Shown here: piece by piece, positions 1 through 5,665 of the stretch
Layout: every line of letters begins with the position of its first letter
How positions within the stretch are numbered: the first letter of the stretch is position 1
Source: Candidatus Hydrogenedentota bacterium
Lineage (GTDB): Bacteria; Hydrogenedentota; Hydrogenedentia; Hydrogenedentales; SLHB01
Assembly (NCBI GenBank): GCA_963674865.2
Contig: CAXXYE010000008.1
Location: 128,001 to 192,000 of the forward strand
Direction: 5' to 3'
DNA: 64,000 nt
Notes under the pieces: model-generated
What the model saw: only the letters and a program-made list of their open reading frames with translations
Databases searched by the model: none
What the model was told of the DNA's origin: nothing
Made by a program: the position numbers and the translations under genes

Positions 1-1254
1 GAGGCGCTGGTGCGGCGCTTTCAAGACATGGCGGTGGGTTGCGCCTACGCGATCCTCGGCGATTTCGGGCACGCGGAGGATGCGGCCCAAGAGGCGTTCA
101 TCCGGGCATTCATGTGTATCGAGCAACTCCGCGATGCAAATGCCTTCCCGGGATGGCTTCGGACTATCGTGGTGCGCCAGTGTGGACGCCATACGCGCCG
201 GAAGCGCATTCCGACGGTGTCTCTTGACGCCGGTGTGGATAGGGCCGCACTGCTTCCTTTCGACACGCCCGAGCATCGCGAAATGCGGGAGCTTGTTCGG
301 GCCGCTCTCGCGGGACTGTCCGCAAGAGAGCGCGAAGCGACAACGCTCTTCTACATCAATGGCTACTCGATGGCCGAAGTCGGCGCATTTCTTGACGTCC
401 CCGTTACCACCGTCAAGAGCAGGCTCCATTCGGCGCGTGGCAAGCTTCGGGAAAGGATGGTGAACATGGTTGAAAACACGCTCAAGGCCGACGCGTCCGG
501 CTCCGGCGAGATGCCCGACCGTATTGCGTTCCTCTTCGAGCTGGCCAAGCCCTTGGCTGGGGGCGTGCCTCTATTGAAGGCCCTGAAGCAGTCCGAGGGG
601 GCCGTGAAATCAACCGAGTTGAGAGAGGTTGTCCATGACTTGCAGATGGATATCCAGGCAGGCCAAACGTTTTCCGGCGCGCTTGCACGGTATCCCGACT
701 TGTTTCCCGCGAAGGCGATATCGCTGATTCGTGATGGCGAATACTGTGGCAGAGTCGCGGTTTTCACGCGGTTGGCGGGGGAATGGCTCGAAACCGGCCG
801 CTGTGAAGTCGATCCTTACGTATTCACACGCTGCGTTCACGCGTCGCACTGGTTCAGTGATGCCGTTGATGTCGGCGCGGAGGCTGTCCTGATCCGCGCC
901 GAAGAGGAGGGCCAAGTGGGCCAGGGCGAGCCGCGTGTATGGCTTGAGTTTCTCATGCCCCGCGGCGCGACGGAGAAGATCGCGCCCGCCTTCTCGCGCG
1001 AAGAGGCCAGGCGATTGTCCGTCGAACCCGAGCCTTTCCGCTCGCTGGCCCAAGCCGTCAGCGTTGTTCAGGAACTGAAGTTGAAGACGGTTCTCGACGC
1101 TGTGCAGGACGGCGACGACATGACGGGAATGCTAAGAATCCGGCTCAGGCCGGATGATTCGAATGAGGTCCTGCTGCCGATTGTGTTTTCCCCGAACTCC
1201 GACATGGATGAGGTCCGCATCGACCTCACATCGCTTCTGGGAGCGGGCGCGTGA
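1..1254 (+). CDS. ECF sigma-70 factor with long C-terminal extension (T2SSF/PilC-like domain plus further domain); 5' end lies outside the window
   Basis: Frame is open from base 1 (EALVRRFQD...). Region 2 DAAQEAFIRAF..AFPGWLRTIV; region 4 LSAREREATTLFYINGYSMAEVGAFLDVPVTTVKSRLHSAR; then GVPLLKAL..DIQAGQTFSGALARYPDLF..LIRDGEYCG, which resembles T2SSF. Confidence 0.85.
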   Translation, partial: EALVRRFQDMAVGCAYAILGDFGHAEDAAQEAFIRAFMCIEQLRDANAFPGWLRTIVVRQCGRHTRRKRIPTVSLDAGVDRAALLPFDTPEHREMRELVRAALAGLSAREREATTLFYINGYSMAEVGAFLDVPVTTVKSRLHSARGKLRERMVNMVENTLKADASGSGEMPDRIAFLFELAKPLAGGVPLLKALKQSEGAVKSTELREVVHDLQMDIQAGQTFSGALARYPDLFPAKAISLIRDGEYCGRVAVFTRLAGEWLETGRCEVDPYVFTRCVHASHWFSDAVDVGAEAVLIRAEEEGQVGQGEPRVWLEFLMPRGATEKIAPAFSREEARRLSVEPEPFRSLAQAVSVVQELKLKTVLDAVQDGDDMTGMLRIRLRPDDSNEVLLPIVFSPNSDMDEVRIDLTSLLGAGA

Positions 1255-1263
1255 GTGGAGAGT

Positions 1264-2235
1264 TTACCCCTGCGGCGGCTCGATGGGCTCGTCCCGGCTG
1301 AGGACCTCTCCTACCACGAAATGCGGCCGCCCCTGCACCTCTCGGTAAACCCGGCCCAGGTATTCCCCCAGGATGCCCACCGAGATCAACTGCACCCCAG
1401 CGAAGAGAATCACCACCAACAGGACGAGCCACGTGGCGCCGTTGCCCCAAGGCCGAGATAGCGCTGTCGCGAGGCCGAGCCAGGCCAGCGCGCCGCCGCT
1501 CAGGAAGAAGAGCAGCCAGCCGATATAGAACGCGAAGCGAAGGGGGATCACCGTGAAATTCGTGATGAAATTCAGCGTCAGCGCAACAAGTTGCGTGACG
1601 TTGTACTTCGACTGCCCCGTGAGCCGCTCCGCGTGCGATACCGGCACCGACGCCCAGCGTCCGTAGCTCAACCAGGCGAACAAGCCGCTGAAGTACTTGG
1701 AGCGCTCATTGTATAGGTTGATGGTTTGGACAAGCCGCCGATCCATCGCAATGAATCCGCTCGCGCTGTCCGGCACATCGATGCCTGTGACGCGATACAG
1801 AAGATGTGACATGAGCCATGATCCGACCCGGCGAACCAGCGAGCCGACACGCCCCGTCCGGATTCCGTAGACGATGTCATAGCCCTCTTTGAGCTTGTCC
1901 ACGAGGCGCGGAATCTCCTCGGGCGCCACCTGGAGATCCGCATCCAGCAAGACGATCACATCCCCCCGGGCGTACTGGAATCCCGCGGCCAAAGCCATCT
2001 GCTGCCCGAAATTGCGGATGAATCTTACGACGCGTACCGCCTCTTCCCGCTCGAACAGCCCCTTCAAAATCTCGAATGAACCATCGCGGCTTCCGTCCTC
2101 GATGAACAAGACCTCATAGCTCTGGTGGTATTGCAGCAGCGTTTCCTTGAGGCGTTCATATAAGCGCTCGAGGTTGCCCGCTTCGTTATAGACGGGCACG
2201 ATGATCGTCAACGCGGGATGGTGTGGCTCGCTCAC
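1264..2235 (-). CDS. GT2 glycosyltransferase, ArnC/GtrB-like (polyprenol-phosphate glycosyltransferase type)
   Basis: IIVPVYNEAGN, EDGSRDGS, RNFGQQMAL, LDADLQ, two C-terminal TM helices, GILGEYLGRVY. Confidence 0.9.
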   Translation of the reverse strand: MSEPHHPALTIIVPVYNEAGNLERLYERLKETLLQYHQSYEVLFIEDGSRDGSFEILKGLFEREEAVRVVRFIRNFGQQMALAAGFQYARGDVIVLLDADLQVAPEEIPRLVDKLKEGYDIVYGIRTGRVGSLVRRVGSWLMSHLLYRVTGIDVPDSASGFIAMDRRLVQTINLYNERSKYFSGLFAWLSYGRWASVPVSHAERLTGQSKYNVTQLVALTLNFITNFTVIPLRFAFYIGWLLFFLSGGALAWLGLATALSRPWGNGATWLVLLVVILFAGVQLISVGILGEYLGRVYREVQGRPHFVVGEVLSRDEPIEPPQG

Positions 2236-2269
2236 TGGACGCGGCTCCTTTTCCGCTCAATACTCTCTA

Positions 2270-2947
2270 TCATATCAGTTCCCCGCCTTCCGGGCCCTCA
2301 TTCAGTAGAAGGTCGATGGCCGACAGGTGGGACATGAATGGCTCGAATTGCTGGCGATAGGGCCGGCACACGTAGTCTTGGAATTCCACTTCAAGGCCCG
2401 CCGCCTCGAACTGCGCGGCTTCGATGAAGGTCTTGCCGGTGCTGCCCTCCCGGAACGTGTGTCCTCCGACGGCCTTCAGCAAATCCACCAGACTCTTCGT
2501 CTTATCCGGGCCGAACGTCACGGGGATGTCGCTCAACATCTTGCAGGGAGTCGCAATCCCAAACTCCTTCGCCAAGAACTCGACAAAATGCATGTCCAGA
2601 TCGAGGAGAATATTCCATTCACGTTTGAAGGCGTCCTCGATAAAGGGCGCGTAGTCCTTCCAATACGGCGCCTTTGCATAGTTCTGGCGGAGCAAGTTCC
2701 AATGGCGGCGACCCCATGCCTGGCCGTTGTCAATCTCCACCTCGTTGATGCGGGCCGTAGACGCCACGCGTTTCACCGGGACGGTGAGATAGGCGAAGTC
2801 CTTCGCCGTGCGGATGCGGTTCCGGTTGCGCCAGTCCTGCTTGGTGTACTGGAGGTTATCTTCGACAATGAAGAGATCGCACCGCTTCATGAGGTCGAAG
2901 AAACCCACCCAAGGCAGGTACCCCGGTTGCAGCGCCGCGACGATCAT
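2270..2947 (-). CDS. WbqC-like family protein
   Basis: MIVAALQPGYLPWVGFF, QYTKQDWRNRNRI, LTVPV, LSAIDLLLNEG. Start placed at the ATGA overlap with the upstream stop. Confidence 0.88.
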   Translation of the reverse strand: MIVAALQPGYLPWVGFFDLMKRCDLFIVEDNLQYTKQDWRNRNRIRTAKDFAYLTVPVKRVASTARINEVEIDNGQAWGRRHWNLLRQNYAKAPYWKDYAPFIEDAFKREWNILLDLDMHFVEFLAKEFGIATPCKMLSDIPVTFGPDKTKSLVDLLKAVGGHTFREGSTGKTFIEAAQFEAAGLEVEFQDYVCRPYRQQFEPFMSHLSAIDLLLNEGPEGGELI

Positions 2948-4500
2948 ACCTCTCCGCCTTCCTTGTCGATATGCAACCGGCACCATTCCCGCACGCACAG
3001 CAGCGTCCAGATCTGCCACCCGTTATTGCGCGTTCCCGTGAAGTGCTCCTCCACAACCGCCGCTACCCCCGCCGGATCGAAGAGCTCCCAGAAGAATCCA
3101 GTGTCTTCCCGAAGCTGTGCCCGGATGTGCGGCTCGAGGCCCTCCCGCAGCATCTCTCCCATGGGTGTGCGAAAGCCCACCTTCGCCCGATCGATGATCG
3201 CGTCGGGCACGAGCCCCCGCACCGCCCGCTTGAGGAGCGCCTTGGGCTGATCGTCGGCGCATTTCACCTCGACGGGGATGCGGAGCGCCAGATCAATGAC
3301 TCGCCGATCCAAGAACGGCGCCACCGGTTCCGTGCCGAAGTGCGTGCTCAGCTTGTAATCGAGCGTCAGCCAATTCGCCATCAGTGTCCGGAAATCGAAG
3401 GCCAGTGCCCTTTCCAAGAGAGTATCCCCAGGACACGCGGCGAAGATGGCGTCATAGGCCGTCTCCGGCTCATAGCCCACCGCCTTGATAAATGAGGCCC
3501 GAAGCAGCCGCGCCCGCTGCGCCGGGTCGAACAGCGTCCGCCGCGCGCGATGGCCGGTTAGGCTGGCCTGTTTGTGCGAGTCGTATCCGGTGAACAGCTC
3601 GTCCGCGCCCCGGCCTGAAACCATGATCCGGTGTCCTGCCTGATGGGCCGCCGCTTCGAGCAGATAACGCGGGAACACGGGCGGATGACATTTCGGCTCC
3701 TCCGCGGCGCGCATCAGCCCGGTTAGGGCCTCGGGGAAGTCCTCGGCTTGGGGAATGACTCGTGTAAACGCGGCGCCGATCTGATCGGCCACCAGTTGGC
3801 CGTAGGGTGATTCATCGAACCGCGCATAGTCCGGGAAGGCCGCCACGTAGGCCTGCGGCGGCATCCCCGCCAACTCCGCTAGCAAGACCGCCATCAGACT
3901 CGAGTCGATCCCGCCGCTCAAGTGGCAGCCTACGCCGGGCTGTGCGAAGGGGAGAACGACCTGCTTCAGCGTGTCGATGATCTCCTCGCACCACGTTTCC
4001 TCGGAGCGGTTCTCGGGATGGTGCTCGAACGTAAAATAGGACTTGACCCGGCCATTATCCAATACGGCCCCGGCCGGCAATAACTGGACGCCCTCGAAGA
4101 ATGTCTTGCCGTCGAGCGACCACACGAAGGTGAGGTAATCGAGGAGCGCCGCCGCGTTGAGTCTTGTGTCTTTCAGGCGTGGCAGCAGGTCGCCGATCCG
4201 CACCGCAAATAACAGTTGGCCTTCTGTTGATTCCGCGTAGTAGAGCGGCACCGTGCCGGCGGCATCCCGTGCCAGAAGTGTCCGCGGCGCCTTGGAATCG
4301 TGCAACGCCAAGGCGAAGCCGCCTTCGATGTGTTCGGCGAAGGCGGCCCCATGGCGAGCGTAGAGCCCCGTGAGATACGGGCCCGGTTCCATGCCTTGCG
4401 GTGTGCGGAGCCTGCCCGCCCATTGCACGGTGACTCCCGTGTCCTTATCCGTGTAACGAGGCCCGCTGCCCTCGAGTGTCTCGGCCGCCTCACCGTGCAT
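2944..4500 (-). CDS. Asparagine synthase-like ATP-dependent amide ligase (no N-terminal Cys1)
   Basis: EGGFALAL, LARDAAGTVPLYY, PP-loop LSGGIDSS, SGRGADELFTGY, PFLDRRV, KVGFRTP. Confidence 0.85.
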   Translation of the reverse strand: MHGEAAETLEGSGPRYTDKDTGVTVQWAGRLRTPQGMEPGPYLTGLYARHGAAFAEHIEGGFALALHDSKAPRTLLARDAAGTVPLYYAESTEGQLLFAVRIGDLLPRLKDTRLNAAALLDYLTFVWSLDGKTFFEGVQLLPAGAVLDNGRVKSYFTFEHHPENRSEETWCEEIIDTLKQVVLPFAQPGVGCHLSGGIDSSLMAVLLAELAGMPPQAYVAAFPDYARFDESPYGQLVADQIGAAFTRVIPQAEDFPEALTGLMRAAEEPKCHPPVFPRYLLEAAAHQAGHRIMVSGRGADELFTGYDSHKQASLTGHRARRTLFDPAQRARLLRASFIKAVGYEPETAYDAIFAACPGDTLLERALAFDFRTLMANWLTLDYKLSTHFGTEPVAPFLDRRVIDLALRIPVEVKCADDQPKALLKRAVRGLVPDAIIDRAKVGFRTPMGEMLREGLEPHIRAQLREDTGFFWELFDPAGVAAVVEEHFTGTRNNGWQIWTLLCVREWCRLHIDKEGGEV

Positions 4501-5665
4501 CGCTGCCCTCGCGGTGATCGGAGGATGATACCTCCGCGCCGGTTGTCACGCGCTTGTGCTCCAGGTGGCAACACCCCTGGCATATCTCAAACGGCCTTTG
4601 CTGGAGGTGCTGCCGGAACTGACGCATCCGCGGCCCGTTCCAGATAGCCTTCAATGAGTTCTCACGGACGTTGCCGATGCGGTAGATAAAGCAGGGGAAA
4701 ACGTCCCCCTTCGCGCCGATGTAGACGTTTGTCCAGGGACTCCGGCATTGAAACTGGTTGAGGTCGATTCCGCCGCTATAGTAGCGGACAATATCCTCGC
4801 GGGGCATGCGCGGTAGGCGAAGCTCGATGCCTGCTTTCTTCGCGGCCTCTTCAGTTGCCGACAGCGCCTGTTGCAGCGCTGTGGCATCGATGCGGGGCAG
4901 CGTGATCTGATCGATGCCGTAGATGCACGGCAGGGCGTCGCCCATGCCTTGGATGTCGTGAAATCGAATTTCCACTTCCAGGTTGAGCACGTCCGCGCCC
5001 GCCTCCGCCGCGATACGCGCCATCTCGGGCAGCACCCCGATGTTCTCTTCCTGGATTACTACCGTGAGGTGGATATGGGGGCACCGCTTCTTCGCCGCGG
5101 CTCGATGACGCGCCAGCGCCCGAACGGCCGCGGTGGTGCGCTCATAGGCCCCCGGCTTGCGGACAATGCGATCATGGATCTCCGCCGTGCCTTCGAGCGA
5201 GACGCCGACGAAGTTGAGGCCCTTGCCCCCCAGTCGGTGCGGTGCCAGCGCGACGCAGGCCGCCGCCCGCTCGTCCGTCACGCGATTGCCGTTGGTGATG
5301 ACATGCGTCCGGCGATGCTGGCCGGCGTGTTCGAGCAGGGCCATGAGGTCCTCGCGTACGAACGGCTCGCCGCCCGTGAACGTGAGCAGGCTGAACCGGC
5401 CCATCTGATCGATGACGCGCTTCCATTCATCCGTCGTCAATTCTCCCTCGGCCTGCGCGGCGGCGGGAGTCTTCTCGTACCACAGGCTGTATTGGCACAT
5501 GGCGCACCGCAGATTGCACCGGCGCGTTACCTCGAGGAAATAGTGCCACGCGGGGAAGGCGTAGCCCCCGCGGAAGAAGCGGAAGGGAACCGCGCTGTGC
5601 GCCCTCATGATCAGGTGATACAGATCCGAGAGGCGATGCCGGCTGCCTTGCTCTTGTCCACTCAT
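4490..5665 (-). CDS. Radical SAM protein with SPASM/twitch domain
   Basis: CNLRCAMC, FTGGEP, ITNG; C-terminal CRSPW..GDVFPC..GNV..CQGCC. Confidence 0.9.
   Translation of the reverse strand: MSGQEQGSRHRLSDLYHLIMRAHSAVPFRFFRGGYAFPAWHYFLEVTRRCNLRCAMCQYSLWYEKTPAAAQAEGELTTDEWKRVIDQMGRFSLLTFTGGEPFVREDLMALLEHAGQHRRTHVITNGNRVTDERAAACVALAPHRLGGKGLNFVGVSLEGTAEIHDRIVRKPGAYERTTAAVRALARHRAAAKKRCPHIHLTVVIQEENIGVLPEMARIAAEAGADVLNLEVEIRFHDIQGMGDALPCIYGIDQITLPRIDATALQQALSATEEAAKKAGIELRLPRMPREDIVRYYSGGIDLNQFQCRSPWTNVYIGAKGDVFPCFIYRIGNVRENSLKAIWNGPRMRQFRQHLQQRPFEICQGCCHLEHKRVTTGAEVSSSDHREGSDAR

Follow-up and report, generated by a model that had tools for sequence, protein, structure and literature searches.

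An ECF sigma factor of a Hydrogenedentota bacterium with a C-terminal tail resembling the front half of a T2SSF-fused GspE ATPase

Sigma factors of the extracytoplasmic function (ECF) type make up the largest class among alternative sigma factors, and tails acting in cis are exemplified among them by the SnoaL-like and TPR tails of ECF41 and ECF42, two groups of ECF sigmas with C-terminal extensions. To our knowledge, the control of ECF sigmas that have no anti-sigma partner is known for only a few tail types. ECF56, with a SnoaL_2 domain, appears as a further extension-bearing group in PMC7730460. For Planctomycetes, Pinto and da Fonseca (2020; PMC7671368) propose that copies of a sigma-2/sigma-4 cassette arising by duplication become inserted within or ahead of other genes, which are thereby captured as tails. 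Here we describe a sigma factor with another kind of tail, encoded at the 5′ edge of a 64,000-nt stretch of a Candidatus Hydrogenedentota genome (GCA_963674865.2, referred to as G000; contig CAXXYE010000008.1, G000:C8:128001-192000), which is called the window throughout.

The gene product is an intact, soluble 436-aa ECF sigma factor, the C-terminal 250 residues of which are one two-domain unit. In the window it appears as a 417-aa ORF that runs off the 5′ end (Table 1). The original prediction, made from the letters of the window alone, had called for retrieval of the missing N-terminus, and we recovered it: the full gene (L001:1444-2754, protein P0001) starts 57 nt upstream of the window at a GTG codon with GGTGAGG before it, and this long start is supported by the N-termini of aligned homologues. 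A public call of the same gene (P0291, 414 aa) takes the GTG at nt 10 of the window as its start and is in all probability too short by 22 codons, omitting 22 residues of sigma region 2 that are conserved in homologues. Pfam places Sigma70_r2 at residues 3-69 and Sigma70_r4_2 at residues 97-149 of the window ORF, both above their cut-offs, and NCBIfam TIGR02937 (sigma70-ECF; 79.1 bits, cut-off 42.9) assigns the front of the protein to the ECF superfamily; the ECF sigma front of the original prediction stands. No NCBIfam equivalog reached its cut-off, the best being SigM with 86.4 bits against the required 190, and neither a sigma-1.1 nor a sigma-3 domain was among the six Pfam families found at E≤10. 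With an ECF core and without sigma-1.1 or sigma-3, the protein is by its domain content an ECF (group 4) sigma-70 factor.

Sigma region 4 is followed by a linker that is disordered in the model (residues 176-187 of the 436-aa protein have pLDDT <50) and then by a helical bundle, which had been predicted to be the cytoplasmic T2SSF domain of the platform protein PilC/GspF. Indeed, Pfam finds T2SSF at window-ORF residues 178-263 (E 1.6e-9, 38.3 bits, cut-off 25.2), and only positions 2-88 of the 125 in the profile are matched, which correspond to the soluble bundle without the membrane part. Sequence searches of the PDB retrieved the N-domain of Thermus thermophilus PilC (2whn, 3.3e-7) as well as Myxococcus xanthus PilC and EpsF, and the T2SSF part of the full-length AlphaFold model (18-row alignment; pLDDT 82.7, pTM 0.57) superimposed on OutF 5nbg with TMt 0.83 and rmsd 1.1, EpsF again being among the matches. 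Compared with cytoplasmic domain 1 of PilC/GspF in general (2whn, Vibrio cholerae EpsF 3c1q/2vma and Dickeya dadantii OutF 5nbg), it is the same bundle, with TMt 0.77-0.83 and rmsd 1.1-2.2, and the FP...GE..G motif is retained in the fusion family. No membrane helix follows the bundle, as had been claimed, or occurs elsewhere in the protein, the top 19-residue Kyte-Doolittle mean being 1.23. The fusion protein has a single T2SSF stretch, whereas each of the genuine PilC/GspF genes of this genome gives two; a protein built in this way, with one bundle and lacking membrane helices, is not a platform protein. A word-based protein search with the tail returned only six ordinary PilC proteins, and the best ESM Atlas matches (0.78-0.79), all of them T2SSF-domain clusters, were below a meaningful level.

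For the last ~150 residues (nt ~823-1242), Pfam gave no match at E≤10. Folded alone, the last 152 residues yielded a model with pLDDT 90.7 and pTM 0.84 (22-row alignment), for which ranks 1-21 among the Foldseek matches listed were all GspE/PilB/PilF extension ATPases, with E values from 1.7e-4. In a VIA-align comparison with 48,161 chains, ranks 1-13 were all taken by N-domains from one class of hexameric ATPases, the PilB/PilT/VirB11 type; twelve belong to secretion, pilus or archaellum motors and one, at rank 7, to an archaeal RuvB-like helicase; the best match was to EpsE 1p9w residues 121-229 (Z 10.6, rmsd 3.2, 103 residues aligned), followed by BfpD (9.6), DotB (9.0), PilT (8.6) and others down to HP0525 (5.8), and the first match outside this class had a Z of 4.3. 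At the profile level, a first hhalign run, in which the C-terminal domain (CTD) rows were accompanied by full-length sequences, gave a probability of 5.6% (P 0.0068), and a CTD-only profile of 18 rows matched the N2 domains of the genome's own ten GspE proteins with E 3.4e-4 over 101 columns and those of T2SSF-fused ATPases, described below, with E 1.8e-5 over 100 columns. The domain thus has the same fold as N2 of GspE/PilB/PilF ATPases (EpsE 1p9w 121-229), in register along its whole length, but no RecA-like ATPase domain comes after it: PF00437 is absent at E≤10, and the protein ends 4-10 residues past N2. Of the 13 columns that are invariant in the ten GspE N2 domains of this genome, the window protein keeps four and replaces nine, by a reading by eye in the register of the first hhalign run, and the same reading shows the loss of the Asp and His of ASDIH and of all four invariant Arg residues. 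"Degenerate N2 without ATPase", in keeping with the original prediction, is on these comparisons a fair description of the C-terminal domain.

We then compared the tail as a whole with other proteins. Its profile aligned in one colinear piece with residues 114-336 of P0031 (hhalign 97.9%, E 5.8e-13, 206 columns), a segment comprising a second T2SSF bundle, a linker and N2. P0031 (611 aa), P0051 (643 aa) and P0103 (633 aa) are metagenomic, complete GspE-type ATPases (T2SSE domains with E 1e-128 to 5e-106) in which two soluble T2SSF bundles replace the usual N1 domains, making them natural platform-motor fusions. The bundle itself scored slightly higher against ATPase-borne bundles (123) than against domain 1 (112.5) or domain 2 (91.6) of the genome's own PilC proteins. 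In view of these alignments, the tail is best read as the N-terminal half of a T2SSF-fused GspE ATPase with its engine cut off. The idea that the sigma factor carries mimics of both a platform and a motor was thus right as to the identity of the two domains; their separate recruitment is not borne out, the tail aligning with P0031 in one colinear piece. To judge from the same alignment, what is new here is that T2SSF and N2 of the tail form one unit, and we regard the architecture and homology of the sigma/T2SSF/N2 fusion as practically certain. The same degenerate unit also exists without a sigma front: P0011 combines three T2SSF stretches with an N2-like domain, and P0071/P0295 have two T2SSF stretches, an N2-like domain and a 3-keto-disaccharide-hydrolase domain. 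In addition, several soluble metagenomic proteins (P0033, P0020, P0035, P0011 and P0071) contain three to four T2SSF bundles without membrane helices, and P0033 adds a TIR_2 domain (E 1.4e-20); the T2SSF bundle seems to serve quite generally as an adaptor. A full-text literature search found no publication on T2SSF-fused GspE ATPases among matches that were covered in part, one of which dealt with Tad pili.

The distribution of the fusion was determined by a HMMER scan of 1.84 billion representative proteins with the tail (E≤1e-3). Nearly all of the 3,969 matches were ordinary PilC/GspF proteins matching the bundle only, while 17 of the best 150 reached the N2-like part, most of them ~410-440 aa in length and with the same sigma front. 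Our own hidden Markov models found the whole tail in 40 of 295 fetched proteins, 29 of which also have the sigma core in full or in part. The full architecture is represented by about 19 clusters at 90% identity, including P0296, which was the only addition from a search with the CTD profile at longer lengths; the homologues with sigma and T2SSF domains that the original prediction had asked for therefore exist. Eighteen aligned full-length members, 27-54% identical to P0001, keep both domains, and all of them end a few residues past the last N2 strand. Phe254, Pro255, Gly265 and Glu266 of the T2SSF motif, as well as Gln388 and Gly395, are invariant, and mean pairwise identity is 48.8% in sigma-2 and 47.1% in sigma-4, against 35.3% in the bundle and 26.0% in N2. 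T2SSF was matched in every one of 41 genomes (G000 and 40 relatives); of the 150 rows listed, beyond which lie 84 further matches, only the one from G000 covers query residues 1-254, and the others stop by residue 113. Two contig scans for homologues, made with narrow patterns, yielded 113 and 137 stretches, of which none was confirmed, and in a metagenome scan with sigma-core patterns the tail was found by tblastn in 0 of 80 kept loci.

The sigma core belongs to a large clade with 50-55% identity, some members of which are labelled Planctomycetota or Phycisphaerae. Counted by eye among the best 120 proteins of a profile search, nine have T2SSF tails and 34 have a class-II tRNA-synthetase core (PF01409, PheS-like), the remaining tails being ankyrin, HEAT, TPR, Rho RNA-binding, GNAT, BNR, methyltransferase or none that could be named. 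The closest paralogue in the genome (L002:1437-2684; G000:C4, about 76.3-77.6 kb), with a core 54% identical to that of P0001, carries a PheS-like tail (PF01409, E 2.8e-28). PheS-like sigma fusions are much commoner than the T2SSF type and look equally undescribed. In a tree of 129 cores (180 alignment columns, 17 redundant or fragmentary cluster members excluded, one divergent trio), the 19 T2SSF-type cores require ten changes, at least three of which are forced by strongly supported branches, and their monophyly is rejected by the approximately unbiased (AU) test (p 0.0065, on a short alignment of 180 columns). By the count of tails and this tree, core and tail have different histories and the sigma clade has many swapped tails, a pattern already in print for Planctomycetes (PMC7671368).

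At the end of sigma-4, the gene contains a candidate internal start (Table 1), in which a Shine-Dalgarno (SD)-like string precedes the codon of Met175, a residue invariant in 18/18 family members. We surveyed 82 loci with DNA aligned to the core model; 21 of them have Met in that column, and nine of these are close clade members sharing the motif L-[KR]-x-[RG]-M-x-x-M-V. At -16..-5, these clade loci show an SD-like 4-mer in 9/9 cases, compared with 634/3,983 windows (0.159) as background in the same genes and 21/77 for internal ATGs generally. Where position -4 is an Arg, its codon is AGG in 7/7 loci, AGG making up 52/341 of Arg codons (0.152), and the other two loci have Gly (GGG or GGA) there, keeping the purine run despite the different amino acid. 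Six other close members of the clade (L056, L059, L061, L062, L064 and L068) have Val, Thr, Ile or Glu in the Met column and no ATG; five of them are without an SD-like 4-mer at -16..-5, and L062 has AAGGAG (read by eye in the upstream 24 nt). The gene call P0015 begins exactly at Met175 and P0012 begins three residues earlier. We considered them as independent free-tail genes and rejected this, as both begin inside the sigma-4 end motif; judging by their first residues, they are truncated calls or calls at the internal start. Taken together, these observations hint with moderate strength at the additional production of a free tail, about 262 aa long, and the case that the internal start is used falls just short of being evenly balanced.

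What, then, might the tail do? The best explanation, which in our estimate stands evenly between right and wrong, is that the tail serves as a regulatory input replacing an anti-sigma factor and probably docks to a motor or platform of a secretion or pilus machine. In solved hexamers, N2 rests against the ATPase domain of the next protomer; T2SSF bundles, in turn, are paired in crystals. Possible partners are numerous in the genome, where there are 10 genes for two-domain PilC/GspF proteins and 10 for full GspE/PilB proteins; the tail would act as the input domain of the sigma, in place of an anti-sigma factor, by docking to one of these roughly ten GspE/PilB motors or PilC/GspF platforms, and docking to them appears most likely because the tail resembles a dead copy of that part of the motor which touches both the platform and the adjacent ATPase protomer. 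Docking would keep the sigma off RNA polymerase until the state of the machine changes, and the threshold could be set by competition of the tethered tail with a free one, probably translated from the conserved internal ATG and its ribosome-binding site. That the tail acts through a component of the type II secretion system (T2SS) or type IV pilus in particular is tentative, and we lean slightly the other way. Complex prediction between the GspE of the C4 cluster (N2 and ATPase domains, 10-paralogue alignment) and tail residues 186-436 gave a score of 0.00 in both runs, which weighs neither for nor against docking. The fullest form of the idea is speculative and, to our minds, unlikely: the sigma would directly sense how a T2SS or a type IV pilus stands in its assembly, through a dead motor half seated in a GspE/PilB ring or on a platform, remaining tethered until the motor engages or falls apart, with the free tail providing the tuning. 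More broadly, throughout the sigma clade, PheS-like tails for instance included, machine subunits in the form of dead copies would then sense partners that are still unassembled.

It should be noted that several observations weigh against this explanation or parts of it. No donor-type, i.e., T2SSF-fused, ATPase was found in the genome of the window by profile search, and T2SSF and ATPase profiles found nothing else on the 628-kb contig of the fusion gene, which is not clustered with T2SS or pilus genes. Within the phylum of the organism, the tail was detected in 1 of 135 genomes, its own, and in 0 of the 134 others, in a survey with a CTD profile of three sequences, the sensitivity of which is limited where distant members are concerned. 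This makes the gene look imported, and a native partner may be lacking here. The N2 part, by the pairwise identities given above, is poorly conserved. Both the diversity of tails in the sigma clade and the rejected monophyly of the T2SSF-type cores agree with the published model of fortuitous insertion, under which a tail can do without a function. As to the internal start, codons of the conserved motif E/K-R-M share nucleotides with the SD-like string, the nine loci are related and were chosen for the motif, so that naive probabilities are too favourable, and the window gene is the only T2SSF-type member with DNA in the survey.

The main rival is a purely cis-acting tail, in which the T2SSF bundle and a PAS-like N2 would form a lid on sigma-2/sigma-4 or a sensor of a small ligand, much like the tails of ECF41 and ECF42 and with no link to any machine; we consider it unlikely, albeit the most serious of the alternatives. 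It would account for the lack of an anti-sigma gene nearby, for the loss of catalytic-type residues from N2, and for the location of the gene away from T2SS and pilus genes. It also draws on the model of the sigma part, which fits compact, anti-sigma-bound structures best (SigW 5wur, TMt 0.68, rmsd 4.4; CnrH 4cxf, TMt 0.71) and has rmsd >20 on polymerase-bound sigma structures; a compact model, however, is weak support, since AlphaFold often draws lone ECF sigmas compact, and the pTM of the full-length model does not establish a fixed contact between tail and core. Moreover, the same sigma core works with unrelated tails, which argues against one specific packing surface, and the occurrence of the T2SSF-N2 unit without sigma points to a function of its own.

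It is improbable, in our view, that the fusion is an evolutionary by-product, in which a T2SSF-fused ATPase gene was hit, internally or at its front, by a sigma-2/sigma-4 cassette after duplication, the tail being carried along without function. The insertion model published for Planctomycetes in PMC7671368 offers a precedent, and the diverse tails, the AU result and the lower conservation of the tail relative to the core all fit; yet a neutral 250-aa tail would be expected to decay or gain stops, and instead two well-folded domains and the same end point are kept in 18 homologues down to 27% identity, with the T2SSF hallmark residues invariant. On this evidence the tail is likely to be a selected regulatory module. 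A misassembled or decaying gene is very improbable: the near-identical gene of another assembly is frameshifted into two pieces, but the reading frame here is intact, aligns end to end with full-length homologues and is matched without differences by two other contigs, which may come from the sample behind this assembly.

These two contigs, of 9,902 nt (in a single piece) and 4,897 nt, come from two public runs of one sample and span window positions 1-1400 with 0 differences and 0 indels, covering every domain junction. As the sample may be the source of this assembly, they provide consistency rather than independent proof. In the second public assembly, on a 32-kb contig, the same gene is split into calls of 231 aa and 160 aa (P0165 and P0290) by at least two frameshifts, accompanied by one Met-to-Val change, between window positions of about 550 and 1050, and this split may represent sequencing error or real decay in a sister strain. 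Neither circumstance that would have counted against the original prediction was encountered, i.e., an extension without T2SSF or N2 matches, or an architecture without homologues combined with signs of misassembly.

Table 1. Features of the fusion gene, in window coordinates
Feature	Position	Strand	Remarks
ECF sigma / T2SSF / N2-like fusion coding sequence, 5′-cut by the window edge	1..1254	+	stop codon 1252-1254
Sigma-70 region 2	7..207	+	Pfam PF04542, E 1.6e-12, 47.4 bits, cut-off 24
Sigma-70 region 4	289..447	+	Pfam PF08281, E 2.2e-11, 43.7 bits, cut-off 25.7; PF04545, E 3e-10
Candidate internal start	451..468	+	SD-like GAAAGG 451-456, 9-nt gap, in-frame ATG of Met175 466-468
Flexible linker, sigma-4 to tail	469..531	+	low model confidence
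Soluble T2SSF helical bundle, PilC/GspF cytoplasmic-domain type	532..789	+	Pfam PF00482, OutF fold match
Degenerate GspE/PilB-type N2 domain, no ATPase domain after it	823..1242	+	model, VIA-align, Foldseek, hhalign

Upstream of the fusion gene lies the 3′ end of mutS, and 9 nt downstream is a convergent family-2 (GT2) glycosyltransferase gene; the fusion gene is therefore either monocistronic or read from mutS, and no anti-sigma gene is adjacent to it. A scan for sigma-70-type promoters gave 0 sites around the gene, and no ECF-type promoter was found by eye upstream of it or of its paralogue. The convergent genes at window positions 1264-5665 on the reverse strand code for the GT2 glycosyltransferase, a WbqC-like protein, an asparagine-synthase-like amidotransferase and a radical-SAM/SPASM enzyme, and the cluster resembles a glycan or peptide modification operon.

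Elsewhere in the genome, at G000:C4:671.9-676.8 kb (L032:1459-3091 and L042), a gene for a 200-aa ECF sigma is followed by one for a 336-aa protein, and the pair stands directly upstream of a GspE-type ATPase gene and a PilC/GspF gene. The 336-aa protein has C-x23-H-x3-C-x2-C near its N-terminus and is anti-sigma-like by the reading of this motif alone. A second ECF sigma (L036) adjoins another GspE/PilC pair on C9, and ECF control of GspE/PilC machines may be a theme of this genome.

A sigma tail that stems from a secretion or pilus motor's front half would represent a novel type of input, and, if it docks to a motor, it would provide a direct wire from a nanomachine to transcription, with a logic comparable to that of FlgM and sigma-28. 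The inheritance of T2SSF and N2 in fused form, both in ATPases and in the sigma, may be taken as a "Rosetta-stone" hint that the platform bundle and the motor N2 work side by side, and the contact between the two is still debated for type IV pili. Likewise, soluble T2SSF modules on ATPases, next to a TIR domain and next to a glycan-binding-type domain suggest an unexplored adaptor role of this fold.

The original prediction had pointed to no described ECF group with such an extension, and our literature searches agree. The T2SSF/N2 sigma tail has no mention in the main text of PMC7671368 or in one of its supplements, nor in the main text of Casas-Pastor 2021 (PMC7826278), and a truncated version of the supplement of the latter has T2SSF once, as a neighbouring gene; full-text searches gave no account of a T2SSF/N2 sigma fusion, and supplements outside their coverage could contain one. 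In comparison with the T2SSF-fused GspE ATPases P0031, P0051 and P0103, the order of T2SSF bundle, short "A..L..G.F" linker and N2 is identical; they differ in having a second bundle and a complete ATPase and in lacking sigma domains. The Planctomycetes ECF duplicates of PMC7671368 have a highly similar core (about 50-55% identity), and in both cases that core is combined with many unrelated tails; here, however, one tail is conserved across about 19 clusters. With ECF41, ECF42 and ECF56 the protein shares a minimal sigma-2/sigma-4 core, the lack of an adjacent anti-sigma gene, a soluble C-terminal domain and a flexible linker, but the folds of the tails are unrelated, being in this case a T2SSF bundle and the N2 domain of a secretion ATPase. 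As far as domain comparisons can tell, the fusion is an undescribed tail type, with a traceable origin, of the known ECF sigmas with swappable C-terminal extensions.

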